From Anaerolineales bacterium (GTDB lineage: Bacteria; Chloroflexota; Anaerolineae; Anaerolineales; RBG-16-64-43): a stretch of DNA of 64,000 bases. The position numbers were made by a program, and so were the translations under genes. Below the pieces are notes generated by a model that saw nothing but the letters and a program-made list of their open reading frames with translations, was not told where the DNA came from and did no database searches. Location of the stretch: the NCBI GenBank assembly GCA_034430775.1, contig DAOUDU010000248.1, positions 16,120 to 80,119 of the forward strand. The letters are read 5' to 3'. Of the stretch, positions 4,071 through 38,816 are shown in pieces (position 1 is the stretch's first letter; the number at the start of each line of letters is the position of its first letter).

Positions 4071-4200
4071 ACACAAAGAACACGAGCACGAAGCCCTTTT
4101 CTTGTCCCGCGTGCCTTGGGGTCTTCGTGGTTTACAAAATGGTCTTTGGAATGCTGCAAAACCCAAATCAAACTCAATATTCATCACCAAGACACGAAGG
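4071..4200. repeat. Cluster of TCTTCGTG-type octamer motifs (repeat family B) forming an imperfect hairpin
   Basis: cacgaagc at 4087-4094, tcttcgtg at 4122-4129 (followed by gttt), cacgaag at 4193-4199. 4087-4096 can pair with 4119-4129 with one bulge. Lies between convergent genes. Confidence 0.6.
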
Positions 4201-4251
4201 AATAGGTGATAGAAACCTCTACCTTAGGACGCATGTGCCCTTCTTGGATTC

Positions 4252-4665
4252 TCAACCTTCAATTATTTTCACAATGACATGCCGCTCGCGCGGACCGTCG
4301 AATTCCGCCAGGAATATGCCCTGCCACGCGCCAAGGACAAGGCGGCCGTCCTCGATAAGAACGGACTGGCTGACTCCCAATAGGGAGGAACGAACGTGTG
4401 CGGGGGAATTCCCCTCGGCGTGCATATGCGCCGGGGAGGAGGGTGCGGTTTGGGTCTTAAGGGTGTGGAGGATGTCCGCGGGTACGGCGGGGTCCCAGTT
4501 TTCATTCAACGTCAGCGCGGCGGTCGTATGTGGAAGAAACAGGAAACACAGGCCGCTTTTTACGCCGCTGCGGTCTACCTGCGTTTGCACCTGTCCGGTG
4601 ATGTCGATGAATTGTTGAGCGGTGCGCGAGGAAACGAAGAATGCGTTTTTAAACGGATCGGTCAT
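4252..4665 (-). CDS. yjbQ: YjbQ/UPF0047 family (secondary thiamine-phosphate synthase-like) protein
   Basis: 137 aa. FLPHTTAALTLNENWDPAV and AEGNSPAHVRSSLLG motifs characteristic of UPF0047. Confidence 0.85.
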   Translation of the reverse strand: MTDPFKNAFFVSSRTAQQFIDITGQVQTQVDRSGVKSGLCFLFLPHTTAALTLNENWDPAVPADILHTLKTQTAPSSPAHMHAEGNSPAHVRSSLLGVSQSVLIEDGRLVLGAWQGIFLAEFDGPRERHVIVKIIEG

Positions 4666-4669
4666 CGGG

Positions 4670-5131
4670 TTACCGGTGGTAGGTCCCCATCAGCGAACCC
4701 GAATCCAACAGGTGGCTCTGCATCACCTGCCGTAGTTGACCGGCAGTACAATCACCGGGCAGATCCAGGATCCGGTCAATGGCGAAAAGTTTAAAATAAT
4801 AACGGTGAGGCTTCCCCGGAGGCGGGCATGGGCCGTAATACCCATGGGTTAGGGCGTCGTTGATTCCCTGGCATCCGATACCGGGAACGTCTGGTTTTAC
4901 CGTAATGCCTTCGGGGAGGTCGGTCCGATCGGGGTAAATATTAAACAGGACCCAGTGCACAAAAGTACCGGAAGGCGCATCCGGATCCTCCACCGTCAAG
5001 GCGTAGCATTTAACCGCCATCGGGGATTTTGTCCATGCGAGGGCGGGGGAAAGATTTTCGCCGTTACAGGCGTGCCGTCGGGGAATCGCCGCACCCTCGG
5101 AAAATGCGGAAGAGGTCAGGGGAATGGGCAT
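4670..5131 (-). CDS. YbhB/YbcL family PEBP (Raf kinase inhibitor-like) protein
   Basis: 153 aa. DPDAPSGTFVHWV and PPPGKPHRYYFKLFALD-like (HRYYFKLFAID) motifs. Confidence 0.85.
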   Translation of the reverse strand: MPIPLTSSAFSEGAAIPRRHACNGENLSPALAWTKSPMAVKCYALTVEDPDAPSGTFVHWVLFNIYPDRTDLPEGITVKPDVPGIGCQGINDALTHGYYGPCPPPGKPHRYYFKLFAIDRILDLPGDCTAGQLRQVMQSHLLDSGSLMGTYHR

Positions 5132-5170
5132 GTTAACCTCCTTTTTGTGCCTATGTAACCATAATTATAC

Positions 5171-5310
5171 ATCGTGTCTTTGTGTCTTCGTTTTATTTTT
5201 TATTATTTCAACCCCCTAGCAAAACTTTTTAAAAAATAATGTCAGTTTCTCTTATTAAATTTTCACATAAAGCCAAATAAAACCACTAAGACACGAAGAC
5301 ACAAAACGGA
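5171..5310. repeat. Family B unit: inverted arms flanking a ~90-nt AT-rich core (MITE-like layout)
   Basis: Left arm cgtgtctttgtgtcttcgt (5173-5191). Right arm aaccactaagacacgaagacacaaaacg (5281-5308). 13 nt of the arms are exactly complementary. The reverse complement of 5281-5302 matches 38695-38716 at 20/22 positions. Confidence 0.6.
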
Positions 5311-5316
5311 TCTCCC

Positions 5317-5673
5317 TTAATACAGCAATCCCCAATCCGCGCCGGTATCCTCCTCCATCATCGATTGTTGCCAGGCCTCGTCGCCCATTTCCATGACCAC
5401 CGGCAATTCCAACGCCTTCTCCGCTTTTTGACGGGCATTTTCCATGAGGGCCGGGCCGTACGGGCAAAAGGGAGTGGTAAGGATCATCCGGATGGAAACA
5501 CTTTTTTCCTGGATTTCCACCGCGCGAATCATTCCCAATTGAATGATGCTTAATCCCAATTCCGGGTCCATAACTTCGCCCAGAGCCTTTCGCAGAGAAT
5601 CCGCTTTCTGCGGATGCGATCTATCGGCTTGCCAAAGTGTCTTGGAGGGGGGTGTGTCAGCGGATTCAGCCAT
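5317..5673 (-). CDS. DUF59/MIP18-family Fe-S assembly protein (SufT/PaaD-like)
   Basis: ORF 5317..5718 trimmed to MAESADTP (ATG at complement 5671-5673). DPELGLSIIQLGMIRAVEI and TTPFCPYG motifs. Overlaps the sufR stop by 8 nt. Confidence 0.7.
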   Translation of the reverse strand: MAESADTPPSKTLWQADRSHPQKADSLRKALGEVMDPELGLSIIQLGMIRAVEIQEKSVSIRMILTTPFCPYGPALMENARQKAEKALELPVVMEMGDEAWQQSMMEEDTGADWGLLY

Positions 5674-6316
5674 CTTCGGATTCCTTTTCCACTTCGGTAA
5701 TGGAATATACACACGCATCCGAACCGGTGCGGATGCAGGAAGTCCTTTCCACCGGTATGCCCAGCGCCCGTGAGATCATGGATGCGTCCAATGCACAGAT
5801 TTCCGGATGGGAAAGGCTTATGCGCGAATAGGGACAGGCCAGTTCGGTAAGGCAATACTGCCCGGCGCCGGTGCTTTCCACGCGCGCCACGAATCCCTCG
5901 TCGGTTAGCAATTCGACCAGGCGTTCCAAACGACGAGGCAATGGAAGTAAATCCAGTTCCGTTTTCCATTCTCCCGCCATGCTGGAGGCGACCTCCATAA
6001 GAATGTTTTCCACCACATCCGGAGGGAGGTGCACCTTCAACTGATCCAGAAGCAGGGTGGTGAATTGAAAATACCGGGAAGTGTCCCGGTCAAGAGCGAT
6101 CGGGGTTAATTTATAGATCTGGCGGGGCCGGCCGACGCCATGCCGTTCCTCGCGGACTTCGATCATCCCCTCCGCCTGTAATGCCGTCAGGTGATGACGC
6201 ACGGCTATCGGGGTGATCTCGACCGCAGACGACAGTTCAGAGACCGTCATCTGTCCCTGAGTCCGCAAGGTCTGAAAAATCCTTTCTTTCGTTGGTTCCG
6301 CTCCAGAAGCGTTCAT
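5666..6316 (-). CDS. sufR: SufR-like transcriptional regulator (winged HTH plus Cys-rich C-terminal sensor domain)
   Basis: ORF 5666..6409 trimmed to MNASGAEPTKERIF (ATG at complement 6314-6316). HTH region MTVSELSSAVEITPIAVRHHLTALQAEGMI. Five Cys in the last ~60 aa. Divergent from sufCBD. Confidence 0.7.
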   Translation of the reverse strand: MNASGAEPTKERIFQTLRTQGQMTVSELSSAVEITPIAVRHHLTALQAEGMIEVREERHGVGRPRQIYKLTPIALDRDTSRYFQFTTLLLDQLKVHLPPDVVENILMEVASSMAGEWKTELDLLPLPRRLERLVELLTDEGFVARVESTGAGQYCLTELACPYSRISLSHPEICALDASMISRALGIPVERTSCIRTGSDACVYSITEVEKESEDG

Positions 6317-6323
6317 TTTAGCT

Positions 6324-6352
6324 ATTCTATTGATAATATTATAATTAGTCAA
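6324..6352 (-). promoter_or_regulatory. Sigma70-type promoter for sufR-sufT
   Basis: On the minus strand: -35 TTGACT (complement 6347-6352), 17-nt spacer, -10 TAGAAT (complement 6324-6329). Only 7 nt separate the -10 from the sufR ATG. Confidence 0.55.
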
Positions 6353-6383
6353 TATATAATATAAATATATAATATATTGACTA
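6346..6383. promoter_or_regulatory. 38-bp palindromic operator candidate between sufR and sufC
   Basis: tagtcaatatat (6346-6357) is the exact reverse complement of atatattgacta (6372-6383). The arms extend to 17 nt with one mismatch. Centre is aaat. Confidence 0.65.
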
Positions 6384-6406
6384 TCTAGCGATAAAAATGC
6401 TATACT
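6377..6406 (+). promoter_or_regulatory. Sigma70-type promoter for sufCBD-orf-SU
   Basis: -35 TTGACT (6377-6382), 18-nt spacer, -10 TATACT (6401-6406). The -35 lies inside the right palindrome arm. Confidence 0.6.
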
Positions 6407-6429
6407 CAATCGAATTTAATGAGGTCTCC

Positions 6430-7215
6430 ATGCCTAGTCTTCTTGAAATACAGGATTTGCACGTAAGTATCGGAGAAAAGCCCCTACTTAAAGGCGTCAG
6501 CCTTGACATCCATCAGGGTGAAGTGCATGCGCTAATGGGGCCGAACGGAACCGGAAAATCCACATTGGCCTATGCGCTGATGGGCCATCCCGGCTATACC
6601 GTAACGAGCGGAAAAATCCTTCTTGATGGAACCAATATCCTCGCGCTGACGACGGATGAAAGGGCTAGGCTGGGCTTGTTCCTTGCTTTTCAATACCCGG
6701 TGGCCATCCCGGGTGTCTCGGTCGCGAATTTTCTGCGCACTGCGATCAACGCGCGGCGCAGGGCGCTGGATCCGCAGGATAAGGGGATACCCGTTCCGGA
6801 ATTTCGAAAAATGTTAAAGGCCAAGCTTGAGATGCTGCAGATTCCGGTCGAATTTGCCGGCCGGTATTTAAACGACGGATTTTCCGGCGGCGAAAAAAAG
6901 CGGGTCGAGGTGCTTCAACTGGCGGTTCTGTTGCCCAAATTCGCCGTCTTGGATGAAACGGATTCCGGACTCGATATCGACGCCCTGCGGATCGTCGCCG
7001 GCGGCGTGGATGCCATCTCCGGACCTGATCTGGGCGTGCTGGTGATCACCCATTACCAGCGGATCCTCAATTACATTAAACCGCAATTCGTGCACGTGAT
7101 GTTCGATGGACGGATTGTAGAATCCGGCGGCGCGGATCTGGCTGTGCGTTTGGAAGAGCAGGGCTACGATTGGATCCGCGAAAAGTACGCTGCCGCCGGA
7201 GGGGGAAAGAGCTGA
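6430..7215 (+). CDS. sufC: Fe-S cluster assembly ATPase SufC
   Basis: ORF 6397..7215 trimmed to [10 protein letters not shown] (GAGG SD 6 nt upstream). Walker [10 protein letters not shown], signature FSGGEKKR, Walker [12 protein letters not shown]. Confidence 0.95.
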
Positions 7216-7216
7216 T

Positions 7217-8626
7217 ATGACGCCGAACGGGAAACCGCAGTGGGAAGGTCCCGGCGAGTATCCGTACGGGTTCCGCGATCCAGAGGAGTACCTCTACCGC
7301 TCGCGTCCGGGGTTACACCGGGAGGAAATCGAGGAGATATCCGCCCAGAAGAACGAGCCGGACTGGATGCGCAAGCTCCGTCTGGAGGCGTTCGACCATT
7401 TTCTCGCGCGGCCGATGCCCACCTGGGGCGGCAATCTCGCAGATCTGAATTTCAACGACATTACTTTCTACATCCGCCCGAGCGACCGCACGCAGGTGTC
7501 GTGGGATGAAGTGCCGGAAGCGATCAAGCGAACCTTCGACCGCTTGGGCATCCCCGAAGCCGAGCGCAAGCTGCTGGCCGGAGTCGGCGCGCAGTATGAA
7601 TCCGAAATGGTGTATCACAACGTTCAACAGGCACTGGAAAAAAAGGGAGTGATCTTTCTCTCCAGCGATGAAGGCTTGAAAAAACACCCGGACGTTTTCA
7701 AGGAATTTTTCGGCACGGTGGTGCCGCATACCGATAATAAATTCGCCGCGCTCAATACGGCCTTCTGGTCCGGCGGATCCTTTGTCTATGTTCCGCCGGG
7801 AGTACACGTGGATCTGCCGCTCCAGGCGTACTTCCGGTTAAACGCCCAGGGCGTGGGTCAGTTTGAGCGGACGCTGATCCTTGTCGATGAAGGCGCTTCC
7901 GTCCATTATGTCGAGGGATGCACGGCGCCGGTGTATACCAGGGATTCGCTGCACAGCGGCGTGATCGAAATCATCGTGCGGCGGGGCGCACGTATGCGCT
8001 ATACGACGATCCAGAATTGGTCCACCAATGTGTACAACCTGGTCACCCAGCGCGCGCTGGTCGGGGAAGATGCGGTCATGGAGTGGGTGGATTCCAACCT
8101 CGGCAGCCGGCTGACAATGAAGTACCCGACCTGTATCCTGCAGGGAAAAGGCGCGCATGGGGAGATTCTCTCCATGGCGTTTGCCGGCCAAGGGCAGCAC
8201 CAGGATGCCGGCGGAAAAATGATCCACCTCGCCCCGGGGACGAGCAGCAAGATCACCTCCAAATCGATCAGCAAAGCCGGCGGGCGGTCGTCCTATCGCG
8301 GTTTGGTGAGGATCCTTCACGGCGCGGCGGGTTCCAAATCCAAGGTGGTGTGCGATGCACTGCTTCTGGACTCGGATGCCCGGACGGATACGTATCCGAC
8401 GATCCTCACCGAGGAAGCGCGGGTGGACATCGGGCACGAGGCGACGGTCAGCAAGATCGGCCAGGAGCAGCTCTTCTACCTTCGCAGCCGCGGACTTACC
8501 GAAGAGGAAGCCGTTACCATGGTGGTCTCAGGTTTTATCGAACCGTTGGTCAAGGAACTCCCGATGGAATATGCGATCGAAATGAACCGCCTTGTTCAAA
8601 TGCAAATGAGCGGATCGGTGGGTTAG
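7217..8626 (+). CDS. sufB: Fe-S cluster assembly scaffold SufB
   Basis: 469 aa. Typical SufB length and motifs ([36 protein letters not shown]-like). Confidence 0.95.
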
Positions 8627-8633
8627 GCGAGCC

Positions 8634-10061
8634 ATGGCGCGAAAATCAGAACGGGCATCGGGTAGCAGCGATACGATTGCGGTCAAACCGCCGGCTCTGA
8701 CCGACATTCAGGTGGAAGCCATCGGCCGCGAAACGGGAGAACCCGGATGGATGGTGGATTCGCGCCGGGCGGCGTTTGAGCACTACCGGCGGATGAACAT
8801 GCCCTCGCCAACCGACGAAGCCTGGCGCCGCACGGAGTTGTCGCAGTTCCCGTATTCCGAATTGGATCTGGACGCGTTGGCGGTTTCCGGGAAGGCCAAA
8901 CGCATTCCGGCTTCCTGGCTGAAGCCTGTGGCCGGCGCGCGGACCGCCGGGAAATTGGTGCTGGAAGACCGGGGCGTGCATACCGCAACATTGGACGAAG
9001 AGCTTTCCCGCTCGGGCGTGATCTTTATGCCATTCTCCCAAGCGGTCCGGGATCATCCGGATCTCGTGCGCGACCTGATGGGAAGCGTGATCCCTTCCAC
9101 GGTGGATGTGTTCACCGCATTAACATCAATCATCTTCGACAGCGGCTTCCTGCTGCACATCCCAAAGGGGATCCGGATCGACAGACCGCTGCAATCGCTC
9201 CTGTGGTCCTCCGGCGAGGGCTTGCGCGCCTGGCGGCTTCTGGTAAACCTCGAGGAGGATGCGGAGGTAAGTCTGCTGCACGAGGTGGCTTCGCCTGATC
9301 GCTCGGTGCATGCCGCGCGGTTGGATGTTGTGGAGTTGATCGTTCGGCCCGGTGCCACCCTGCGCTTCTTTATGACCCAGGCGTGGGGGGGAAATGTCGT
9401 CCGCGTCGCGCACGAAAAGGCGGTCGTGCATAGGGATGGCCGGCTGATCTGGGGCAATGCCAACTACGGCGCCCAATCCACCAAGGTATTTACCACAATG
9501 GATTTAACGGAGCAGGGCGCTGCCGCGCAATGGTCCGGGCTGCACGTGCTGGATGGAGACCAGCGGGCGGACAGTTCCACCGCGCAAAATCACCTTGCCC
9601 CGAAAACCAGCTCCGATCTACTGAGCAAGGGGGTGCTGCTAGGCGCCGCGCAATCCCACGCGAGCGGCATGATCCGGGTGGAACCCGACGCCGCCGGCGC
9701 CGACGGATACCAGGGGAACCGGATTCTGATCCTTTCGGACCGGGCCAAAGCGGAAGCATTACCGGGCTTGGAGATCCTCTCGGATGATGTGCGTTGTACC
9801 CACGGCGTTTCGATCGGCGGATTGGACCAGGAAGAGCTCTTCTATATCCGCTCCAGAGGAATACCGGAGGAAGAATCCAAAGCGTTGCTGGTCGAAGGGT
9901 TCCTGGAAGGGGTGTTGAGACGGGTTCCGGAGGAGGAAATCCGGCAGCGGGTACATCTTGCCGTGGGGGCTAAAATGAAGACAATGGAAGCAGGGCATCT
10001 TCAGATGAAAGAATCCGTCCGGAAGCAGGCGGAGCCGGACGCACAGGGAGCACATTCATGA
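8634..10061 (+). CDS. sufD: Fe-S cluster assembly protein SufD
   Basis: 475 aa. Position after sufB; C-terminal SufBD beta-helix motifs (CTHGVSIGGLDQEELFYIRSRGI). Confidence 0.9.
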   Translation: MARKSERASGSSDTIAVKPPALTDIQVEAIGRETGEPGWMVDSRRAAFEHYRRMNMPSPTDEAWRRTELSQFPYSELDLDALAVSGKAKRIPASWLKPVAGARTAGKLVLEDRGVHTATLDEELSRSGVIFMPFSQAVRDHPDLVRDLMGSVIPSTVDVFTALTSIIFDSGFLLHIPKGIRIDRPLQSLLWSSGEGLRAWRLLVNLEEDAEVSLLHEVASPDRSVHAARLDVVELIVRPGATLRFFMTQAWGGNVVRVAHEKAVVHRDGRLIWGNANYGAQSTKVFTTMDLTEQGAAAQWSGLHVLDGDQRADSSTAQNHLAPKTSSDLLSKGVLLGAAQSHASGMIRVEPDAAGADGYQGNRILILSDRAKAEALPGLEILSDDVRCTHGVSIGGLDQEELFYIRSRGIPEEESKALLVEGFLEGVLRRVPEEEIRQRVHLAVGAKMKTMEAGHLQMKESVRKQAEPDAQGAHS

Positions 10062-10408
10062 CCTACGTAGCGGTTTACATCGGAGATATCGTTGAAGTGT
10101 TTTGCGATCACAAGCACAGCGGACGAAGGGTGCGTGACTGGGTCGAAGGAGTCGTGGTGCATGCCGACGACCGGATGACGGCGATCCAGTTTCGCAACGA
10201 CGTCTACCTGACGGACGGATGGATGGTTCCCGACCGGATCCTGTGGTTCAACAAAGGATCGGTGAAAATCCGGTTGGCGAAGAAAAGCCGCGGATCCGCC
10301 GTCTCCCAGAAATCCGGCGCTTCCGCCGCTGTGCGGAATCATATACCCGCCTCCCGGACACGCAAGCCGGCGGATACCCGCCGTCCCGTTCGGCGCGGGA
10401 AAAAATAG
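10058..10408 (+). CDS. Hypothetical 116-aa protein embedded in the suf operon (beta-rich N-domain plus basic tail)
   Basis: ATG overlaps the sufD TGA (ATGA at 10058-10061). GGGAG SD 8 nt upstream. Ends 15 nt before sufS. No family recognised. Confidence 0.55.
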   Translation: MTYVAVYIGDIVEVFCDHKHSGRRVRDWVEGVVVHADDRMTAIQFRNDVYLTDGWMVPDRILWFNKGSVKIRLAKKSRGSAVSQKSGASAAVRNHIPASRTRKPADTRRPVRRGKK

Positions 10409-10423
10409 GAAACGGGAAAGCGC

Positions 10424-11683: not shown

Positions 11684-11690
11684 GGCAGAC

Positions 11691-12080
11691 GTGGACGATC
11701 TCTACCGCCAGCAAATCATCGACCGATACAAGCATCCGCTTAAACGAGGTGTGCTCGAGCCGCACGATATCACCTTTGAGGACGAAAACCCGCTCTGCGG
11801 CGACCGGCTGCGGATCGATCTGCGCGTCGGCCCGGACGGAAAGATCACCCAGGCGGCTTTTTCAGGTGACGGCTGCGCCATTTCGCAGGCATCCGCAGAT
11901 CTGCTGGCCGAGTATATCGAAGGCAAGCCGCTTGAGGAAGTCCGCGCGCTTTCCAAAGAGGATATCCTGGATCTGCTGGGAATCGAACTTAGCCCGATCC
12001 GTTTGAAGTGCGCGCTGCTTTCGCTAAAAGTACTAAAGGCGGGGGCGTATGGGATGAAAGATCTGAAAGAAGCGGAGTAA
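11691..12080 (+). CDS. sufU: SufU/IscU-type sulfur acceptor/scaffold
   Basis: ORF 11577..12080 trimmed to GTG 11691 (VDDLYRQQIIDRYKHP). NPLCGD, GDGCAISQASA and KCALLS Cys motifs. Confidence 0.85.
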   Translation: MDDLYRQQIIDRYKHPLKRGVLEPHDITFEDENPLCGDRLRIDLRVGPDGKITQAAFSGDGCAISQASADLLAEYIEGKPLEEVRALSKEDILDLLGIELSPIRLKCALLSLKVLKAGAYGMKDLKEAE

Positions 12081-21810: not shown

Positions 21811-21953
21811 TTCTTCTTCCCCGGGCACTTTGAAGACTCGAAGCGGCGGCTGACGAAGACACGAGGGATGCAAGGAGAGTCCCCGGCTGTCCCGGGAACT
21901 ATTTATCTGATCCAGTGTTATAAAAGCAAATCCTTCACAGGAGAAAGTCTGTA

Positions 21954-28047: not shown

Positions 28048-28698
28048 CTACTTGGCGCTCTTGGCCGCCTTATCCGGCTTTTCCGTACTGAGCACCTGGT
28101 CGACGAATCCGTACGTGATCGCGGCTTGGGCATCAAGGTAGAAGTCCCTTTCCGTATCGCGTTCGATGACTTCCAGTGGCTGGCCGGTATGCTTTACGAG
28201 AATCTGATTAAGCGCGCTTCGCAGGCGCAGGATCTCCTTGGCCTGGATTTCCACATCGGTGGCCTGCCCCTGGGCGCCGCCCAGCGGCTGATGGACATGG
28301 ATTGTGGCATGGGGCAGCGCGAAGCGGAAGCCCTTGGTTCCCGCCGCCAGCAGAACGGTTCCAAACGACGCCGTAACCCCGATGGCGTACGTATAGATGG
28401 GGTTGGTCATCTGGACCTGCTGCATCGTATCGTAGATGGCCAAGCCGGAATAAACCTGCCCTCCGGGGCTGTTGATATACATGTGGATTTCTCTTTCGGA
28501 ATCCTCTTTTTTAAGAAACAGCAGTTCCGCCACAATCAGGTTGGCGACGACGTCATTGATCGGCGTGCCCACGAAGATGATTCGTTCCTTCAAGAGCAGG
28601 GAAAAAATATCATAGGCGCGCTCGCCGCGGGCATTGGTTTCAATAATATGGGGCACGAAGATCGGCACACCTTCGGAAGACGGTTCATTTATCGGCAT
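28048..28698 (-). CDS. clpP: ATP-dependent Clp protease proteolytic subunit
   Basis: 216 aa. [23 protein letters not shown], catalytic His context IHVHQPLGG. Confidence 0.95.
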
Positions 28699-30109: not shown

Positions 30110-30191
30110 TGGGGAAGGAGGGACTTGAACCCTCACGCCTTGCGGCACATGATCCTAAGTCATGCCTGTCTGCCAGTTCCAGCACTTCCCC
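30110..30191 (-). tRNA. tRNA-Leu, anticodon UAG
   Basis: Reverse complement is GGGGAAGTGCTGGAACTGGCAGACAGGCATGACTTAGGATCATGTGCCGCAAGGCGTGAGGGTTCAAGTCCCTCCTTCCCCA. 7-bp acceptor GGGGAAG/CTTCCCC, anticodon loop CTTAGGA, long variable arm, GGTTCAAGTCC T-loop. CCA is not encoded. Confidence 0.9.
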
Positions 30192-30335: not shown

Positions 30336-32873
30336 GTGAAGACAATTCCTGGGACCGTTCGAAAAGTGGATATCGACCAAGAAGTTCAGCAATCCTATCT
30401 GGATTATGCAATGAGTGTGATTGTGGCGCGGGCGCTGCCGGATGCGCGCGATGGATTGAAGCCCGTCCAACGGCGTATCCTCTTTGCGATGAACGATATG
30501 AGCCTCTCGGCATCGAATGCCTATAAGAAATCCGCCCGCATCGTCGGGGAAGTGCTGGGAAAGTACCACCCGCACGGCGATATGGCGGTTTACGAAACGA
30601 TGGCCCGCATGGCGCAGGATTTTTCGATGCGCTACCTGCTGGTCGACGGCCAGGGAAATTTCGGTTCGGTGGACGGCGACCCGCCCGCGGCGATGCGGTA
30701 CACCGAAGCGCGCCTGTCCCCGCTTTCAATGGAAATCCTGACGGATCTGGAGAAGGATACCGTCGCCTATTCGCAGAATTTCGACGGGTCGCTCCGCGAG
30801 CCCGACGTCCTCCCGGCGGCTGTACCGAATTTACTGGTCAACGGAGCTACGGGCATCGCCGTCGGTATGGCAACCTCTATCCCGCCCCATAATCTGGGCG
30901 AAGTGTGCGATGCCCTGGTGTTCATGCTGCGCTCATGGACCCGGTTGGAGGAGATCTCGGTCAAGGAACTCACCCGCCACATTTCCGGTCCGGATTTCCC
31001 TACCGGCGGTCTGATCTTGGATCCGGCCGGAAGCGAGGAGGGCCTGCTTGCGGCGTACGGTTCCGGACGCGGAAAAATCACCGTCCGGGCACGAACTCAT
31101 GTGGAGGAAACCACCCGCGGACGGTCGCGGATTCTTGTCACCGAGCTGCCCTACCAGGTAAACAAGGCTGCGCTGCTCGAACGGATCGCCGATCTTGTAC
31201 GCAGCGGCACCGTCGCGGGAATCGCCGACCTGCGGGACGAATCCGACCGGCGCGGGATGCGGGTGGTGATCGACCTGTTGCGCACTTCGGACGCCCGGCA
31301 AGTCCTGCGCGACCTCTATAAGCGAACCCCGATGGAAACGACTTTCAGCATCAACCTGCTGGCGCTGGTGAACAACGAACCGCGGATGCTGACGTTGAAG
31401 CAGGCGTTGCGGGTGTTCCTGGAGCATCGGCTGGATGTCATCCGCAAACGCAGCGCGTACGACCTGGCGCGCGCCAAAGAACGCGCCCACATCCTCGAGG
31501 GGTTGCGCATCGCGCTGAAGAACCTTGACGAAGTAATCCGGCTTATCCGAGGGGCGAAGGATACTGACGATGCCCGCGCCAAACTGCGGAAGCGGTTCAA
31601 GCTGAGCGAAATCCAGGCCAACGCCATCCTGGATATGCCGCTGAAGCGGCTGGCGGCACTCGAACGCGAGAAGATTGAACTCGAATACAAGGAAAAAACC
31701 GCGTTGATCAAGCGGCTGGAAAAAGTCCTCGCCTCGCCCAAGCTCCTGCGCCAGGTGCTGGTTGACGATCTTCTTCGCGTAAAAAAACAATATGTCGATC
31801 CGCGGCGCAGCATCATCGTCCACGGCTGGGAAGCCGAGCCGAAGGCGCCGGTCACGGCCGAAACCGCCGAGCCGGTGACGGAATCCTGGATTGTCCTCCT
31901 GCGCGGCGGGGAACTCTCGCGCCTTGCCGCAACCAAACCTCCAGCGGTATATGCGAAGAACCCACCCCGGTTTATCGTAAAAGCCTCCTCGCGGGATATC
32001 CTTTACCTTTTCACCGAGAAAGGCCGCGCAGCTTCGATCCCGGTTCATACCATCCCCGCGCGTGAGGACCCCAAGGACGGCGTCCCGTTCTCCACGCTTT
32101 GCGCGCTGGAAGCCCGCAGCCGGGTGAGAGCCGGATTGGCTGTCTCACCCGCCGAGGCGGGATCGGGCGAGGACACCCGCTCGATATTATTGTCCACCCA
32201 CAAAGGATTGGTGAAGAAAACACTGGTTCAAGATCTGCCGGGGTCGTCGTCGCAGGTGCTTCAGGCGATGAAAGTTGCGCCGGAAGACTCCGTTGGCTGG
32301 GCTCTTCTGCTTACCGGGAAGTCTGAAATTTTACTGGCGACCAGCACCGGGATGAGCATCCGCTTCCGCGAGAACGAGATCCGTCCGACCGGATGGGGTA
32401 CATCCGGGGTAATGGGGATCCGCCTTACGCGTCCCGACGAGCAAATCGTCATGACCGCCGCACCCGCGGCCCGCGAGGATATCCTGCTTGTCTCGGATAC
32501 CGGACAGGCCAAACGGACGCCCGCCGCGCAATATCCGGTCCAGGGACGTTACGGTGTGGGAATCGCCACCTGGAAGACCGGTGTAAAAACGCGGCTGCTC
32601 GGTGGATTTTCCGGGACGCAGCAGGATAAGCTGGCGCTGGTTTGGAAGGACGGACAATCCAGGGTGCTCTCCCTGGACGAAGTTCCGAAGCGCGGACGCC
32701 CGGGAGTCGGGAAATCGATCATTCCGAAGAAAATGGCAGGCATTCTGGATGCAGTCGTCCCGATCCTTATTAAGAGCAAACCGGCTTCAAAAAGGAAGAA
32801 GAAGCCGTCCAAGCCTGTCCGTAAGCCGGTGCGGAAATCCGTGAAGAAAATAAAGCGCCGGAAGAAGAAATGA
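30336..32873 (+). CDS. gyrA: DNA gyrase subunit A with Lys/Arg-rich C-terminal tail
   Basis: 845 aa, GTG start with [45 protein letters not shown]. Tail is [33 protein letters not shown]. Confidence 0.95.
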
Positions 32874-32929
32874 GTGGCTCCAGTTCGATTTACCGGATTG
32901 TTGAAGAAGGAATGTATTGGAAATGACCG

Positions 32930-34369
32930 ATGAAGAAACCGTCTGACATTCTAAAAACCGTCAAGTGTTTTATCCGGCGTAAAGAGCTCTTCGGCCCGGG
33001 GGAAAAGATCCTCGCGGCCGTCTCCGGCGGCGCCGACAGCCTTTGTCTGGCGCTGGTGGTAAAGCAATTGGGTTATCCTCTTCACATCGCCCATTTTGAT
33101 CACTGTTTGCGGCCGGAAAGCGGCCGGGAGGCCGAGATGGTTTGCCGGGCGGCGGAGCGGCTGGGCATTCCCTTCAGCCTCGGGCGGGGGGATGTGTCCA
33201 GCCATGCCGCCCGGAACCGGATGACAACGGAGGAGGCGGCCAGAGACCTGCGGTATGCGTTCCTGCTGCAAACGGCAAAGACATTGCGCATCACCACAAT
33301 CGCCACCGGCCATACTCTGGACGATCAGGCAGAAACCATCCTGATGCATCTTATCCGCGGATCGGGATTGAAAGGGCTTGGCGGAATACGGCCGGCCGGG
33401 ACGGTTCCCTTACCTCTTAAAAATGCTGTCGATGCAGCTGTCCGCATCGTCCGCCCGTTGTTGTGTTTGACGCATGCGGATACCAGCGGGTATTGCGCGC
33501 AAGAGGATTGGACTCCCCTCGACGATCCAACCAATCGGGATTCCGCGTTCACCCGCAACAGAATCCGGCTGGAATTATTACCGCTTCTGAAGGAGTACAA
33601 CGCATCGATCATCGAGGTATTGGCGCGGCTTGCGGAAGTTGCCCGCGCGCAGGATGATTTCCTCGCGAAAACCGCAGACAATTTATGGAAAAAATCATCC
33701 GTCGAATTGGCACCGGGATTGGTGCGATTCCCGTTGAAAATTTTCCGGAGCGAATCGGTGGCCGTCCGGCAGTCGCTTCTCCGGCGCGCTGTACAGCATT
33801 TGACAGGTACGCTGGAAGATCTGGCTTTTCAGCAGGTGGAACGCGTTCTGGAATTTGTAGGAACTCCATCCGGTCCACATCGGATGGACCTGGCGCTTGG
33901 CGTTGGTGTATCGATTGAACGAGAATGGCTGGTGTTCCGATTTCAAGCGGATTTGCCCGAAGCGCCGGAATGGGAAGCAGCCGAGCTTCCATGTCCTGGG
34001 AGCTTCTCTATCCATTACCCCGAATGGAGAATCGTCACTTCGTTCTCGGAACTTCCCAGGCCTGCGCAGATGGAACCGGCAGCCGGTCCATGGAATATCT
34101 GGATTGATGCGGACTGCATCCGACCGCCATTGTCACTTCGGAAGCGAAAAACGGGAGATTTATTCCTTCCGACGGGCATGGCGGAGCCCGTTTCCCTGAA
34201 CGGGTTCCTCTCCTCCCATCACCTATCCTTAAGCGAAAGGGATCATTGGCCGCTCGTTTGCGATGCGGAAGGAATTATCTGGATACCGGGGTACCGCCTG
34301 AAAAAGGGAATTGCTCCATCTGAAGGAACCCGTCGATTCATAAGGATTAATATTGACCGGTTCGAATGA
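32930..34369 (+). CDS. tilS: tRNA(Ile)-lysidine synthase
   Basis: 479 aa. AAVSGGADSLCLA PP-loop, ATGHTLDDQAETILMHLIRG. Confidence 0.9.
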   Translation: MKKPSDILKTVKCFIRRKELFGPGEKILAAVSGGADSLCLALVVKQLGYPLHIAHFDHCLRPESGREAEMVCRAAERLGIPFSLGRGDVSSHAARNRMTTEEAARDLRYAFLLQTAKTLRITTIATGHTLDDQAETILMHLIRGSGLKGLGGIRPAGTVPLPLKNAVDAAVRIVRPLLCLTHADTSGYCAQEDWTPLDDPTNRDSAFTRNRIRLELLPLLKEYNASIIEVLARLAEVARAQDDFLAKTADNLWKKSSVELAPGLVRFPLKIFRSESVAVRQSLLRRAVQHLTGTLEDLAFQQVERVLEFVGTPSGPHRMDLALGVGVSIEREWLVFRFQADLPEAPEWEAAELPCPGSFSIHYPEWRIVTSFSELPRPAQMEPAAGPWNIWIDADCIRPPLSLRKRKTGDLFLPTGMAEPVSLNGFLSSHHLSLSERDHWPLVCDAEGIIWIPGYRLKKGIAPSEGTRRFIRINIDRFE

Positions 34370-34736
34370 TTTTCGATGCCAACTGTATCATTTAGCATTT
34401 AAAATAAATCGATTGGAATGATCAACCGCCAGACTTAATTTATATTCAAAAATAGGTGGAAAAAAGCACAAATAGGTAGACTATGCGAAAAATATCCTGA
34501 AATCGGGTTTTCTGATCTTTGCACGAAGACGAGTAAGGAAAGGAGTTTTTTTCAAATGAACTGAACGGGTTTCGGAAGGGGGGAGACGGGGGAAATCCGA
34601 TATTGTGCAGCGATGTATAAATGGAATCCCGATTAACTTTTCACAGAGTGCAACAGGCCTTCACTGTTTGTTAAAAAAAGTTTTTTCGCCTGTGAAAAAA
34701 GCTTTCGCAAACGGAGTCCGGATTATTAAAACGAAA

Positions 34737-34782
34737 CCGGGGTGAGAATCCTGCCCAATCCTTCACCCCGGTGCGATATAAC
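34737..34782 (-). terminator. Intrinsic terminator of the Zn-ribbon/K-rich gene
   Basis: ccggggtga (34747-34755) pairs with tcaccccgg (34773-34781). On the minus strand the hairpin is followed by tttcgtttt. Confidence 0.7.
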
Positions 34783-34800
34783 CTAAAGTGCATGGCCGTT

Positions 34801-35484
34801 TTATTTTCGGCTCTTTTTCTTTGTGCTCTTCTTGATGACTTTCTTGGCTTTCTTGACGGGTTTCTTCGCGGCCTTCTTGACCGGTTTCTTAATAGCTTTT
34901 TTAACGGGTTTCTTCGCGGCCTTCTTAACCGGTTTCTTTGCGGCCTTCTTGACTTTCTTGACAGGTTTCTTTGCGGCTTTCTTTACTTTTTTAACCGGCT
35001 TCTTTGTGACTTTCTTTGGCTTCTTTACGACCTTCTTGACAACCGGTTTGGGTGAAACCGGCGCGGGAGCCGGGAGCTCAATAATGGGCATAGGCATAGC
35101 TATAGGTGCAGGCTTGGGAGCCTCCGGCTGAGGAGTCACCGGTTGGGGATACGCCGGCTGGGGAACCGCAGGCTTGGGGGCCTCCGGCTCGGGAGCCGCA
35201 GGCTCGACGGGCGGAAAAGGAGCGGGAATGTCTGTCATTGGCTTCTTGTCCTCCTGAAAGGATTGGCTGTGAATGGGTGTCGAGAACGTGGCAGGGGCAC
35301 TCAAAGGTGCATGATGGCGCAATTGATCCACAGGTATCTTCAGCGCCTTTCGGCACCGTGGGCAGTGTTCAACGTGATGCCTTGCCTGTGTGGCATCCGC
35401 GGCGGCGAGGGCAGACGCAACCGCATCGGAACTCATCTGAAAAGCACAACTGCAATATTGGCATCTCCACGAAAACGCTGACAT
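34801..35484 (-). CDS. Zn-ribbon protein with Pro-rich linker and histone-H1-like KKPVKKAA-repeat tail
   Basis: ORF 34801..35760 trimmed to MSAFSWRCQYC (ATG at complement 35482-35484, perfect AGGAGG SD 5 nt upstream). CQYC...CPRC. PEPEAPKPAVPQP linker. 82-aa Lys-rich C-terminus. Confidence 0.65.
   Translation of the reverse strand: MSAFSWRCQYCSCAFQMSSDAVASALAAADATQARHHVEHCPRCRKALKIPVDQLRHHAPLSAPATFSTPIHSQSFQEDKKPMTDIPAPFPPVEPAAPEPEAPKPAVPQPAYPQPVTPQPEAPKPAPIAMPMPIIELPAPAPVSPKPVVKKVVKKPKKVTKKPVKKVKKAAKKPVKKVKKAAKKPVKKAAKKPVKKAIKKPVKKAAKKPVKKAKKVIKKSTKKKSRK
34804..35049. repeat. Imperfect tandem DNA repeat (24- and 33-nt periods) encoding the KKPVKK(V/A)(K/A)... tail
   Basis: Recurrent cttcttgac(c/g)ggtttcttcgcggc units on the plus strand. 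Lies entirely inside the CDS. Confidence 0.85.
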
Positions 35485-35801
35485 CAACGCCTCCTGTGTG
35501 TTTCCAATATACACAAAATTACCAGAAATGCAAATGCCAAAAAGGAATTGTTCCATCTGGTATTCCGGCAATCTGACGGAGGCTCCTGCCCCCGTGGATT
35601 GCGTCACTCCAACCTGCTCGATGATCCCTGCCATACGATTATCCACCTTGCAGACAACTTGGCACCGGCGCCGGATCCACCATTCCGGACCCGTTGCCGG
35701 AACAGACAGGATCATAATAGCTGTCCGGGGAAAACCAATGGGATCAAATTCATATACCAATCCTTTTTGGAATAAAACCCGACCATAATTATCCGGATTT
35801 C

Positions 35802-35830
35802 TTGACAGCTCATCATTTAGACGCTACAAT
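35802..35830 (+). promoter_or_regulatory. sodA promoter
   Basis: -35 TTGACA (35802-35807), 17-nt spacer, -10 TACAAT (35825-35830), ~90 nt upstream of the ATG. Confidence 0.6.
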
Positions 35831-35926
35831 CGTTACTCTCACAGTTGAGATTCTTCGTTGAATGATATTTATTCGCACCGGAAATGGTTTTTCCGGTGTC
35901 GACGGCAAGCAGGAAGGAGCATCCTC

Positions 35927-36535
35927 ATGCCGTACGAACTCCCGCCGCTTCCGTATCCCTCCAACGCCCTCGAACCGCATATCGACGAACAAACACTCCG
36001 GCTGCATCACGACAAGCATCATAAAGCGTACATTGACGGACTGAACAATGCTGAAGCGAAACTGGCAGAAGCGCGCGAGAAGTCTGATTTTGCGCTGATC
36101 AAGCATTGGGCGCGTGAGCTTGCATTCCATGGATCGGGTCATATTCTGCACTCGCTGTACTGGTCGACAATGGCGCCGGCCGGTAAAGGCGGCGGCCAAC
36201 CTGAAGGGGAATTACTGCGGCAGATAGCTTCCGATTTCGGATCCTTCGAATTGTTCGCCAAACAGTTTTCCGCCTCGGCAGCCGCCGTGGAAGGTTCCGG
36301 CTGGGCGGTGCTGACTCTGTCGCCGATCGGCAAAAAGCTGGAAATTCTCACCGCTGAAAAGCATCAGGATCTGACTCAGTGGGGGGCAATGCCCATCTTA
36401 ACCATTGATGTTTGGGAACACGCATACTATTTGAAATATCAAAACCGCCGGGCGGAGTACATCACCGCCTGGTGGAATGTGGTTAATTGGCAGGAAGTGG
36501 CTTCCCGGTTAACCGCGGCCTTGAAGCGGATGTGA
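35927..36535 (+). CDS. sodA: Fe/Mn superoxide dismutase
   Basis: ORF trimmed to MPYELPPLPY (AGGAAGGAG SD). LHHDKHH, DVWEHAYYLKYQN. Confidence 0.95.
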   Translation: MPYELPPLPYPSNALEPHIDEQTLRLHHDKHHKAYIDGLNNAEAKLAEAREKSDFALIKHWARELAFHGSGHILHSLYWSTMAPAGKGGGQPEGELLRQIASDFGSFELFAKQFSASAAAVEGSGWAVLTLSPIGKKLEILTAEKHQDLTQWGAMPILTIDVWEHAYYLKYQNRRAEYITAWWNVVNWQEVASRLTAALKRM

Positions 36536-36612
36536 AATCCGGGAGTGGCCGGAGAAAAGAACTATCGGCAGCCCGGCTTGCTACTTCCTTTTTTTTCGGG
36601 AGGAGTTAATCC

Positions 36613-37008
36613 ATGCCCCATATCATCACCAGCCTGTGTTTGCGCGACGGGGGATGCAAAGATGTCTGCCCGGTAGATTGTATTATCCCCGGCAAGCCAG
36701 AAACCGAGTGGCCCTGGTATTACATCGATCCGGACGTCTGCATCGATTGCGGCGCCTGTGTGGCGGAATGCCCGTTCGAGGCGATCTTTCCAGACAGCGA
36801 TGTGCCCGCTGCGCATATTGCCAAAGACGGCCAGCGTCTTTCGCGTTCGGAAGGCACCGTTGCGTACGATGGCACCGACCACGACAAGAAACCGGTCCAT
36901 CTCGAACATACGATCGTGCTGAAAGCCGGAGAGACGGTTGATCTGCGGCCGGATATTCCGATCAACGCAAAATTCTTCAAAGACGGCCCCGGATACTCGG
37001 CGAAATAG
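36613..37008 (+). CDS. Ferredoxin (7Fe-type Cys pattern) with C-terminal extension
   Basis: 131 aa. CKDVCPVDCI and CIDCGACVAECP motifs. GGAGG SD. Confidence 0.85.
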   Translation: MPHIITSLCLRDGGCKDVCPVDCIIPGKPETEWPWYYIDPDVCIDCGACVAECPFEAIFPDSDVPAAHIAKDGQRLSRSEGTVAYDGTDHDKKPVHLEHTIVLKAGETVDLRPDIPINAKFFKDGPGYSAK

Positions 37009-37223
37009 AACCGAGTCGGAATCGAAAAGGGGCCCGGTCCGGTTTTAAAGTGATGAGAAAGCTGGACCTTGTCATTGCGCGGCCTGCCCCGGTTACCCCC
37101 GCTCGCGAAGTTCTTACGTCGGGAGATTGTCGGCGCTCCTCAATTTTTTTCGGTCGCCGCCATAACAAAAAAAAGTTTTTAGGGCTTGCACTGGATCTTG
37201 CATTTCCGCGCCCGGAGGAAGGC

Positions 37224-38654
37224 ATGGAAGTTTTTCGAATTGAAAAGGATTCGCTGGGTGAAGTGCGAGTCCCCAAGAATGCTATGTATGGAGCGCAGAC
37301 CCGGCGCGCGATGGAAAATTTTCCCATAACCGGAAAACGACCGTACCAGGCTTTCATTTGGTCGGTGGCGACGATCAAACGCGCCGCAGCCGAAGTCAAC
37401 GGCGGGCTGGGCTTGCTTGACGCGGCGAAATCAGCGGCGATCGCGCGGGCGGCGGAAGAAACGGCGGGGGGGATGTGGGACGCCGAATTTGTCGTTGATC
37501 CGTTTCAAGCCGGGGCCGGCACCAGCCATAACATGAACGCCAACGAAGTCATCGCCAACCGGGCCACCCAGCTCTTGGGCGGAGCGCTCGGGGAATACCG
37601 CATCAGCCCGAATGACGAAGTCAACATGGCGCAATCCACCAACGATGTGATCCCCTGCGCGATCCGGCTCGGCATCCTTTGGCGGCAGAAAGAATTAATG
37701 GCGGCGGTCGATGGGTTGAGCCGGTCGCTTGCGGAAAAGGCGGCCGAATGGGACGGCGTGATTAAATCCGGCCGGACCCATCTTCAGGATGCCGTTCCCA
37801 TCCGTCTTGGCCAGGAATTCGGAGGGTATGCGGAAGCCGTCAAACGCGACCGGGAAAGGTTGCGGTCAGCGGGGCAGTCACTCTTCCAACTCGGGATTGG
37901 TGGAACGGCAACCGGGACCGGTTTGAACGCCCACTCCGATTTCCCCAGGAGAATGGTGGAGCGCTTGGCGCAGCTCACCGGATGGAAGCTTAGGGAGGCT
38001 GAAAACAGGTTTGAAGCCATGCAATCGATGGCCGACGTGGCACATTTCTCGGGGTCGATGCGAACCCTCGCGCTAACCCTGATCCGGATCGCCAACGACC
38101 TGCGACTTCTGGCGTCCGGCCCCGCCACCGGTTTCGATGAAATACGTTTCGCGCCTCTTCAGCCGGGATCTTCGATCATGCCCGGCAAGGTGAATCCGGT
38201 GATGGCCGAAATGCTCAATATGGCGATGTATCACGTGATCGGACTGGATACGGCGGTCATGCTCGCAACCCAAGCCGGGCAGCTGGAATTAAACGTGATG
38301 ATGCCGCTGATCGCGAACGATGTATTCGAGATGATGCAGGTGACCATAGGGGCGATCAACGCCTTCACCGAAAAAGGGATTAAGACCCTGCAGGCCAATC
38401 CCGCCAAGGCCGAAGCGTGGCTTGTCCGCAATGCCGCAATTGCCACAGTGTTAAACCCATTGATCGGGTATCTCGCGGCGGCCGAACTGGTCAAGGAAGC
38501 GAACGGACAGGAACGCACCATCCGCGAGCTGGCGCTGGAAAAAGCGGCGGCGTCGAAGCTGACGCATAAGGATCTTCACCGTCCGGTAACCGTCGGTGAA
38601 GTGGAAGAGGCGTTGGGAAATTCGCGGAAAATGACTGAAGGCGGGATATTGTAA
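37224..38654 (+). CDS. Aspartate ammonia-lyase / class II fumarate hydratase family enzyme (AspA-like)
   Basis: ORF 37050..38654 trimmed to MEVFRIEKDSLGEVRVP (GGAGGAAGG SD). YGAQTRRAMENFPITG, GSSIMPGKVNP signature. Confidence 0.85.
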   Translation: MEVFRIEKDSLGEVRVPKNAMYGAQTRRAMENFPITGKRPYQAFIWSVATIKRAAAEVNGGLGLLDAAKSAAIARAAEETAGGMWDAEFVVDPFQAGAGTSHNMNANEVIANRATQLLGGALGEYRISPNDEVNMAQSTNDVIPCAIRLGILWRQKELMAAVDGLSRSLAEKAAEWDGVIKSGRTHLQDAVPIRLGQEFGGYAEAVKRDRERLRSAGQSLFQLGIGGTATGTGLNAHSDFPRRMVERLAQLTGWKLREAENRFEAMQSMADVAHFSGSMRTLALTLIRIANDLRLLASGPATGFDEIRFAPLQPGSSIMPGKVNPVMAEMLNMAMYHVIGLDTAVMLATQAGQLELNVMMPLIANDVFEMMQVTIGAINAFTEKGIKTLQANPAKAEAWLVRNAAIATVLNPLIGYLAAAELVKEANGQERTIRELALEKAAASKLTHKDLHRPVTVGEVEEALGNSRKMTEGGIL

Positions 38655-38692
38655 GATTTCTACAATGGAGATCCGAAAAAGAAATCATTCCT

Positions 38693-38816
38693 AGTGTCTT
38701 CGTGACTTCGTGGTTAAGCTTGAGATGCAAAACGAGAATAATAGTAAACCACTAAGAAATAAAAAATTCCTGCTTCTTCGTGCCCCTCGGTTTTTTCGTA
38801 TTCTTCGTGCAAAAGG
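38693..38816. repeat. Family B cluster with four TCTTCGTG-type octamers
   Basis: tcttcgtg at 38697-38704 is directly followed by acttcgtg at 38705-38712, then ggtt. aaaccactaag (38747-38757) is complementary to 38706-38715 at 9/10 positions. Further tcttcgtg copies at 38775-38782 and 38802-38809. Confidence 0.7.

Follow-up and report, generated by a model that had tools for sequence, protein, structure and literature searches.

Tandem-octamer foldback repeats and their association with GxxExxY nuclease genes in an Anaerolineales genome

Dispersed intergenic arrays of very short head-to-tail units are known from filamentous cyanobacteria as short tandemly repeated repetitive (STRR) sequences, which are heptamers of unknown function and are not characteristically paired as inverted arms; we know of no cognate protein gene for them. 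A different arrangement is seen in the intervening sequences (IVS) of 23S rRNA in Leptospira and Coxiella, where a small open reading frame (ORF) of the family PF05635 lies within long inverted repeats, the stem RNA of which can be processed, and of which gene-less versions also exist. Here we describe a family of tandem octamers that fold back on each other, first noticed as copies of TCTTCGTG/CACGAAGA in a stretch of 64,000 nt (C248:16120-80119, here referred to as the window) from the assembled genome of an Anaerolineales bacterium (Chloroflexota; GCA_034430775.1; 3.81 Mb, 261 contigs, 59.6% GC). Some members of the family enclose genes of the GxxExxY (PF13366) family.

The octamer family shares several properties with the hairpin-forming doublets (REPINs) of REP sequences (repetitive extragenic palindromes) and their REP-associated tyrosine transposases, or RAYTs (Bertels & Rainey 2011, PMC3116915; PMC3337134). 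In both cases short extragenic inverted doublets are foldable and belong to several families per genome, copies alternate in clusters, each family has one cognate gene flanked by its own repeats, and inheritance is largely vertical with a patchy phyletic distribution. On the other hand, the partner gene here encodes a 125-aa PD-(D/E)xK protein of the GxxExxY family and not an HUH tyrosine transposase, and the arm consists of tandem 8-nt units instead of a single imperfect palindrome. A cognate RAYT (Y1 HUH, PF01797) flanked by the same repeats was not found, and the rule of one protein lineage for each repeat family holds only by analogy, with GxxExxY taking the place of RAYT.

The only partial earlier description that we found is that of "paired octanucleotide sites" in Geobacter metallireducens (Aklujkar et al. 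2009, PMC2700814), which the passages of that paper dealing with them interpret as putative sites of a global regulator or of integration host factor (IHF)/HU. As described in these passages, and as is the case here, the sites of classes 1-3 have 3-5 tandem octa- or heptanucleotide units, are paired on opposite strands over a distance that varies, occur in tens per genome and lie between genes. Two of the classes, 2 (TCTCCGTS) and 3 (MTYCTGA), are similar to arm families of this genome, CTCCGTG and ATCCTGT, whereas the unit described below, YCTTNGYG, is not among the consensus sequences given there (GTTGCTYN, TCTCCGTS and MTYCTGA). No GxxExxY gene is mentioned in those passages, which do not extend to the supplementary gene table.

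As in the IVS, a small ORF lies within long inverted repeats, since the arms described here enclose GxxExxY genes; however, the elements considered here are located outside rRNA, and no PF05635 gene was found in this genome. PF05635 genes are multi-copy in several related Anaerolineales. The likeness to STRR sequences lies in the very short, dispersed, intergenic head-to-tail unit, but the period is 8 rather than that of a tandem heptamer and the phylum is another. Like miniature inverted-repeat transposable elements (MITEs), the gene-less copies are small, dispersed, nested and bounded by inverted repeats. Unlike in MITEs, their interior is not conserved, their arms are internally repetitive, and there is no related element with a DDE transposase; no target-site duplication was seen either, but the sites compared offered no clean empty site from which one could be read. 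We found no descent from an insertion sequence encoding a transposase; the gene-bearing copies encode only the 125-aa PD-(D/E)xK protein.

Unit, arm and hairpin of the octamer family

Genome-wide, intergenic DNA contains 87 copies of TCTTCGTG, where an order-3 Markov model predicts 14.1, while coding DNA, which is 6.2 times as long, contains 101 (0.031 per kb), so that the intergenic density is 5.3 times the coding density. These and the following intergenic statistics depend on our own gene calls, which are crude (dicodon model, 3426 genes, 86% coding). The original prediction, that of a dispersed intergenic repeat family, had named a lack of such enrichment over background as its own refutation, and it survived this count. 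By intergenic excess, TCTTCGTG ranks 12th among all 8-mers, and its relatives CACAAAGA, CGCAAAGA, ACACGAAG and CCACGAAG are also near the top. Period-8 arrays of at least 2 units were found 133 times in intergenic and 38 times in coding DNA, which is a 21-fold difference in density, and those of at least 3 units 65 times and once, respectively. Tandem dimers of the form C[AG]C.AAG.C[AG]C.AAG occur 132 times in intergenic and 4 times in coding DNA, compared with 1 and 3 for the reversed pattern as a control.

In the window itself, 9 exact copies of the octamer were found against 2.3 +/- 1.6 expected from dinucleotide shuffles, 1 of 100 of which reached 9. All six intergenic exact copies that had been predicted were recovered (4122+, 5292-, 34522-, 38697+, 38775+ and 38802+), and so were the predicted 7/8 variants. 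The single coding copy noticed at the time, 28570-, is present, yet two others had been overlooked (28654- in the gene 28048-28698 and 41241- in the gene 40897-41778). A 22-mer said to match the reverse complement of another spacer does so at 20/22 positions, although its true position, 38694-38715, is one base off, and tcttcgtgcaaa is indeed common to 38802-38813 and to the reverse complement of 34518-34529.

In the sequence around the 87 intergenic copies a period of 8 is apparent, and TCTTCGTG is one spelling of the unit consensus YCTTNGYG. For an unbiased logo we took triplets with fixed outer units and used the unit between them. The positions Y, C, T, T, N, G, Y and G carry 0.59, 1.52, 1.22, 1.27, 0.24, 1.44, 1.25 and 1.60 bits, respectively, position 5 being essentially free. 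An arm is made of 2-4 tandem units, typically three, and two inverted arms give a hairpin, the canonical element being ACC-(CACNAAGA)x3-loop(4-38 nt)-(TCTTNGTG)x3-GGT. The genome has about 130 arms; clean hairpins, the loops of which measure 4-38 nt, number at least 51, and lone arms with no partner also occur. An inverted partner was found within 130 nt on the 5′ side for 72 of the 133 arrays and on the 3′ side for 31, as opposed to 1 in the random control. The best copy in the genome, C144:35430-35488, folds with -49.2 kcal/mol (z -12.5).

Three sequence subfamilies were distinguished. GTG-8 is the CAC/GTG form of the canonical element, GCG-8 reads tcaCCGCAAAGgCGCAAAGa...TCTTTGCGtCTTTGCGGtga, and "type c" has 9-nt units plus a CCTGAAGG unit. 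At five loci (C216, C21, C196, C203 and C95) the arms alternate in clusters with two alternating types of linker, much as in bacterial interspersed mosaic elements (BIMEs). Between the two arms of a hairpin, the fixed positions match at 0.89-0.94, while the variable base N is complementary at 0.52, which is not above chance (0.48 +/- 0.04). About half of the units carry a stem mismatch, and it is always at the same unit position.

The family is therefore real and non-random. That the copies are chance or low-complexity matches with no common origin has practically no probability left, and it is refuted for the family as a whole by the intergenic excess, by the tandem dimers, by the 65 of 66 arrays of at least 3 units that are intergenic and by the inverted partners. 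It applies at most to lone copies in the window (34522, 35851, 28570, 28654 and 41241), which are at chance level.

GxxExxY genes between the arms

A gene for a GxxExxY protein was recognised beside one of the clusters (C216:2403-2795), and all seven PF13366 genes of the genome are flanked by octamer-type units. In each flanking arrangement the inverted units lie upstream, followed by a Shine-Dalgarno sequence and the ORF and then by forward units. The gene-bearing members of the proposed system would be GxxExxY genes placed between the same arms, which are spelled CGCAAAGA at C18, CACGAAGR at C227 and C216, CACGGAGG at C36 and ACAGGATN at C78. We applied a scored inverted-repeat test (score of at least 27) to 40 homologues from related genomes and the 7 own genes. 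Inverted arms of 8-10-nt tandem units were detected for 31 of the 47 (27/40 homologues and 4/7 own genes), mostly within about 45 nt of the start and stop of the gene.

Mapping arm type on the protein tree required 12 changes, compared with 20.8 in shuffles, and none of 200 shuffles was as low. GTG-8, GCG-8, type c, CACGGAGG and CAGGAT arms each correspond to one clade. Since many members of these clades are syntenic orthologues, the arm test was redone only on pairs from different taxonomic families. The shared fraction of arm 6-mers was 0.147 for pairs with proteins at least 50% identical and 0.044 for pairs below 40% (p = 1e-7, with pairs that are not independent of each other). By analogy, each arm subfamily would have its own nuclease lineage, much as a REPIN population has its own RAYT. 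A further arm family, with ACAGGATT/AATCCTGT units, was counted in 48 intergenic and 12 coding tandem dimers with 0 in the reversed control (e.g. C78:8700-9200, C242:7369-7571 and C3:25554-25620), and it has a GxxExxY clade of its own with 99% SH-aLRT support.

Copy number follows the nuclease lineage as well. Within the genus, where counts range from 0 to 71, 7 of the 8 genomes have the GTG-8 pattern; three sister genera lack it, and its occurrence in the order's other families is patchy. Homologues of the GTG-8-lineage protein with an identity of 66% or more were detected in only 6 of 61 relatives, two of which belong to other families of the order, and these six have 33, 65, 8, 71, 45 and 16 copies of CACNAAGACACNAAGA. 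Among the genomes with no such homologue, 49 of 55 have at most 4 copies. The three-unit form was found in only 4 of 300 other Chloroflexota genomes and in 65 viral stretches of IMG/VR, where 45 of 83 matches have an inverted arm within 80 nt.

The protein is a predicted PD-(D/E)xK nuclease of 125 aa with a core like that of Cas4 and lambda exonuclease, and the E..D..ExK motif is kept in 6 of the 7 own proteins. The structures closest to its AlphaFold2 (AF2) model (pLDDT 92.7) are those of Cas4 SSO0001, lambda exonuclease and MGME1; the best structural match, to Cas4 SSO0001, is moderate (probability 0.99, E = 9e-3), and no sequence match to GxxExxY was found in the PDB. A survey of PD-(D/E)xK proteins lists PF13366/GxxExxY as "Unknown" (PMC3424549), and we found no functional study of PF13366 in the open-access literature.

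At C107:13700-14750, several tandem units of ~135 nt, each containing a hairpin of GCG type, are found immediately upstream of a GxxExxY gene. The longest ORF there reads through the repeats (...NAKTQWRNGAR...FASLRLCV...) and is a likely source of mis-annotated N-terminal extensions. In annotation, if the proposed system is real, short ORFs and gene ends that read through arrays would have to be treated as artefacts or recent captures (e.g. FASLRLCV/NAKTQWRN upstream of C107:14749).

Orthologous sites and copies in the window

A difference between species was seen at C144:35411-35517, where the element begins 17-21 nt past the same stop codon (G000, the genome studied here, and the congeners G003, G005, G006 and G007 aligned; G004 is similar). 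This genome has a perfect GTG-8 hairpin at that site and five congeners have one of GCG type, and the terminal flanks differ in most congeners (cttaaCCAC vs tctcaCCGC). As judged from the aligned sequences, this is a wholesale replacement of the arm family and not the outcome of point mutation. In G001, a classical terminator occupies the site.

Other sites are conserved in place. At C95:50435, a GTG-8 hairpin is common to three species, with a compensatory CAT...ATG change in this genome, and the C227 cassette is syntenic in six congeners. G002 has no cassette there, but it has 240 nt of unrelated sequence, which makes the insertion boundaries unreadable. A third orthologous locus, C17, is uninformative on mobility, as G004 has another gene and a classical terminator at that position.

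The copies in the window, which are mostly old and decayed, are as follows (strand is given where the feature has one).
3975-4016, forward: C-terminal codons of the gene 3453-4016, ccgcgaagagcacgaggggagaacccgaagggcag, corresponding to what in congeners is the left outer arm of type c, tcCACGAAGAaCACGAAGAagacctgaaggacacg
4072-4132: hairpin 1, partly decayed, in the convergent spacer 4017-4251; left arm CACAAAGA-acacgag-CACGAAGC at 4072-4094, a 19-nt loop, and right arm CCTTGGGG-TCTTCGTG-gtt at 4114-4132
4185-4247: second hairpin of that spacer (hairpin 2), with left arm CACCAAGA-CACGAAGG at 4185-4200 and decayed right arm CCTTAGGA-CGCATGTG-CCCTTCTTGG at 4222-4247, abutting the stop of the UPF0047 gene
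5169-5192, forward: arm ACATCGTG-TCTTTGTG-TCTTCGTT, just upstream, in the sense of the gene, of the PEBP gene 4670-5131 (reverse strand)
5284-5307, reverse: its inverted partner CACTAAGA-CACGAAGA-CACAAAAC, beside the stop of the FeS-assembly gene 5317-5673 (reverse strand)
21852-21867, reverse: degenerate arm of two units, GACGAAGA-CACGAGGG, standing alone in the divergent S20/PlsY spacer, where no partner was found for it
28570-28577 and 28654-28661, reverse: isolated coding octamers within the gene 28048-28698, at chance level and outside the family
34522-34529, reverse: solitary exact octamer with no tandem neighbour or partner, at chance level or a last relic
35851-35858, forward: solitary 7/8 unit in the superoxide dismutase (SOD) leader, at chance level
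38660-38716: hairpin downstream of the Lyase_1 (fumarase/aspartase-like) gene 37050-38654, with a fold that is not significant; its left arm, ctacaatggagatccgaaaaagaaatc, has decayed, while the right arm, TCCTAGTG-TCTTCGTG-ACTTCGTG-gtt at 38689-38716, is intact
38750-38782: short one-unit foldback CACTAAGAaa-loop-tTCTTCGTG (-3.7 kcal/mol, not significant)
38774-38809, forward: type c arm remnant, tTCTTCGTGcccctcggttttttcgtatTCTTCGTG, which adjoins the stop of the gene 38818-39582 (reverse strand)
41241-41248, reverse: isolated coding octamer within the gene 40897-41778, at chance level and outside the family

The only significant stem in the window is that of the arms 5169-5192 and 5284-5307, which pair over an AT-rich interior of 91 nt (-27.9 kcal/mol, z -5.3); four other folds tested had z near -0.4, among them the weak fold of hairpin 1 (-17.8 kcal/mol, z -0.35).

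In four congeners, arrays occupy the same positions in the spacers 4017-4251 and 5132-5316. In the first spacer, an outer type c hairpin holds two GTG-8 hairpins nested in its loop in this genome, G003 and G005, while G006 and G007 have the outer hairpin only. Hairpin 1 has counterparts at this position in G003 and G005 and is missing from G006 and G007, and the right arm of hairpin 2 corresponds to the type c arm of congeners, CCTTCGTG..CCTTCGTGcTCTTCGTGGA. At the other edge of this spacer, a repeat arm appears to have been absorbed into the 3′ coding end of the gene 3453-4016 as its last ~13 codons, a reading that comes from an alignment by eye with the orthologous spacers of G005, G006 and G007; the version of this gene in congeners likewise ends within the arm (tcCACGAAGAaCACGAAGAag...).

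In the spacer 5132-5316, the left arm is 83-96% identical in G003, G005 and G007, and the interior exceeds shuffle level by about 2 sd, the flanking coding DNA being 76-79% identical. The right arm 5284-5307 has orthologues in G003, G005, G006 and G007, with a nested GC hairpin at this place in G005 and G007. Changes of the arms between species are mostly at position 5. Downstream of the gene 37050-38654, arrays are present in three other species as well, with differing numbers of units. The decayed left arm of the 38660-38716 site still reads CCACGAAGAtCCGAAGAAGA in another species (L001), and the position orthologous to 38774-38809 reads CCTTCGTGtCCTTCGGGtttcCCTTCGTGtCCTTCGTG in L002 and CCTTCGTGtCCTTCGTG in L003.

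Gene 3′ ends and the readings of the family

The spacers that carry arrays are convergent in 25 cases, co-oriented in 34 and divergent in 11, where 10.1, 46.0 and 13.9 were expected by spacer length (chi-square p = 2e-6). Convergent spacers are thus enriched about 3-fold and the arrays are concentrated at gene 3′ ends. The original prediction had placed copies between convergent genes, which agrees with these numbers, and just downstream of promoters, which does not, as divergent spacers are not enriched. Its two promoter-linked examples proved to be the lone 7/8 unit in the sodA leader and the lone degenerate two-unit arm in the plsY leader. No sigma-70-like promoter pattern and no intrinsic-terminator pattern was detected in the window spacers scanned. 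The hairpin consensus ends in GTGGT(a/t)aa with no T run, and is therefore not the GC stem with a following U-tract of an intrinsic terminator. Because of their position at gene 3′ ends the arrays are ruled out as promoter-proximal operators, and because they have no U-tract they are ruled out as classical terminators. A search of the whole window with Rfam 15 returned only a tRNA (30110-30191), and no family matched the repeats. Where congeners have no octamer hairpin at an orthologous convergent junction, we observed a classical GC-stem and T-run terminator instead (L159 = G001:C19; L177:2070-2115 = G004:C8). Since there is a 3′-end bias, and since terminators replace missing hairpins, a co-opted role of the arrays at transcript 3′ ends is plausible.

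We lean towards the reading that the octamer arrays are gene-less members of a nuclease-associated foldback-repeat system, one that parallels REPIN/RAYT yet lies outside that family and is not driven by a RAYT, and that they were probably co-opted as 3′-end hairpins. The nuclease would read the fixed positions of the unit and ignore position 5, and it may keep the arms homogeneous, spread them or swap them at occupied sites. The host, for its part, would tolerate the hairpins or use them as structures at the 3′ ends of transcripts. The free unit position, the conserved fixed positions and the lineage-specific families together argue for sequence-specific recognition, beyond selection for a hairpin alone, and the likeliest reader of the unit sequence would be the associated nuclease and not a transcription factor. 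Among the options first offered for the octamer, the core of a small mobile repeat comes closest to this, given a dispersed foldback repeat with subfamilies, alternating-arm clusters, nesting and wholesale replacement at a fixed site. Perhaps tandem-octamer foldbacks even form a phylum-spanning class that has the minimal Cas4-like GxxExxY nuclease, and not a transposase, as its cognate enzyme. Through cutting and templated repair, the nuclease would keep arms homogeneous and could overwrite the hairpin already in place with one of its own arm family ("hairpin homing"), and the host would use the hairpins at 3′ ends. The swap at C144:35411-35517 suggests such an overwriting by another arm family, but this extended proposal is possible rather than probable.

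Several observations weigh against a nuclease-associated mobile system. At the sites compared we saw neither a clean empty site nor a target-site duplication, and thus no sign of transposition, and most copies, together with the C227 cassette, are syntenic across the genus, which from the alignments would make any mobility slow. Loops have no homology among dispersed copies outside local clusters, and thus give no sign of recent copying of whole elements there. Six genomes carry 29, 10, 7, 7, 6 and 5 GTG-8 copies with no nuclease of the cognate lineage, and one of them, G027, has no PF13366 gene. The co-variation of arm and protein could also be vertical co-inheritance of a static unit. Finally, as the base N is not complementary beyond chance, pairing in the hairpin is not the sole constraint, and possibly not the main one.

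The hairpins could instead be primarily host elements of 3′ ends that stand in for terminators, block 3′ exonucleases or serve as RNase III sites, which is what has been proposed for E. coli REP; selection by the host would then maintain them, with GxxExxY genes merely lodging in them. This would fit the 3.3-fold enrichment of arrays in convergent spacers, the conservation of orthologous arms amid randomised spacer sequence, the two sites at which a terminator replaces the missing hairpin (G001 and G004), the 107-nt spacer C144:35411-35517, in which the hairpin is the only strong structure, and the single compensatory double change at a fixed position, CAT...ATG. Nevertheless, the stems have no U-tract, the terminator scan of the window spacers was empty, and the window copies have decayed to folds that are not significant. 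Under selection for pairing alone, one position common to all units would not stay free, with half of the units unpaired at it, and distinct families travelling with their own nuclease lineages would stay unexplained. On the sense strand of 24 co-oriented hairpins, G.U exceeded A.C by 38 to 24, which is not significant, so the RNA-level element that had also been suggested is at best a secondary effect, favoured by the position at gene 3′ ends. We thus regard a host role as the primary one as rather unlikely, while as a secondary, co-opted function it is compatible with the nuclease-associated system.

Sites of a host DNA-binding protein, whether a global regulator or an IHF/HU-like nucleoid protein, have been proposed in Geobacter metallireducens for what the relevant passages describe as the same architecture (classes 1-3, PMC2700814). 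The unit in this genome does look like something recognised by a protein, with 6-7 fixed positions and one free irrespective of pairing, with fixed positions conserved across species, and with arms that occur alone; to this extent the regulator site of the original prediction holds, whereas its promoter-proximal placement is unsupported. The arrays are at gene 3′ ends and not at promoters, and no promoter-like sites are nearby. Unlike in a conserved regulon, a single genus spans 0 to 71 copies and three sister genera have none, and the arm family is exchangeable at a fixed site. Moreover, with a period of 8 bp, successive sites would face different sides of the duplex. Host-protein sites are for these reasons quite improbable. 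An ordinary REP/REPIN mobilised by a RAYT, that is an IS200-like tyrosine transposase, is a far remoter candidate still. Although the extragenic inverted doublets form hairpins, some clusters alternate as in BIMEs and two PF01797 genes are present in the genome, the palindrome that flanks the RAYT-like gene C126:5079-5660 is another one, cttaagaccgagtcggtcttaag, and the IS200-like gene at C223 has GC hairpins of its own. Neither is flanked by an octamer array, and the presence of PF01797 does not track octamer counts across 61 genomes; the RAYT link was therefore rejected. On balance, the interpretation first given to the octamer is partly supported.

If the nuclease-associated system is real, PF13366/GxxExxY, a large family of unknown function, would gain a concrete substrate in its own flanking octamer arrays, bacteria would have a second system of a repeat plus its cognate enzyme beside REPIN/RAYT, and the "global regulator sites" of Geobacter would be reinterpreted. 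What the present tests add is the co-variation of arm and protein, the relation of copy number to nuclease lineage, and the behaviour of orthologous sites.

Other repeats were met in the same genome. Octamer arrays themselves stand at contig ends (C18:1-160, C147:1-185 and C223:21272), which suggests that they break the assembly, and such repeats may help to explain the fragmentation of metagenome-assembled genomes (MAGs) of this kind. Another small repeat, the ~27-nt GC hairpin CCCGGCCTACCCCAACCGGGGCAGGC, is inserted in octamer arms at the unit boundary AAG|C (C227:9420-9446, outside the window, C8:34210-34241, C144:3481-3547 and C51:3361-3425). It is highly repeated in the genus, and G007 has dozens of copies that are 100% identical. 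The 8-mer GCCTGCCC is among the most over-represented in intergenic DNA (148 vs 25 expected), while CTGGGAGA/CTCCCAGC (120 vs 14 expected) and CCTCTCCC are the most over-represented; at least some of the latter belong to another hairpin repeat (ccttctcccagcttatgctgggagaagg...; C8:30010-30358). At C126:5040-5710, the RAYT-like PF01797 gene lies between cttaagaccgagtcggtcttaag palindromes on both sides in a classical REP/RAYT arrangement, and C100:29673-30453 contains an array of related gacccttagggtc hairpins with a period of ~100 nt.

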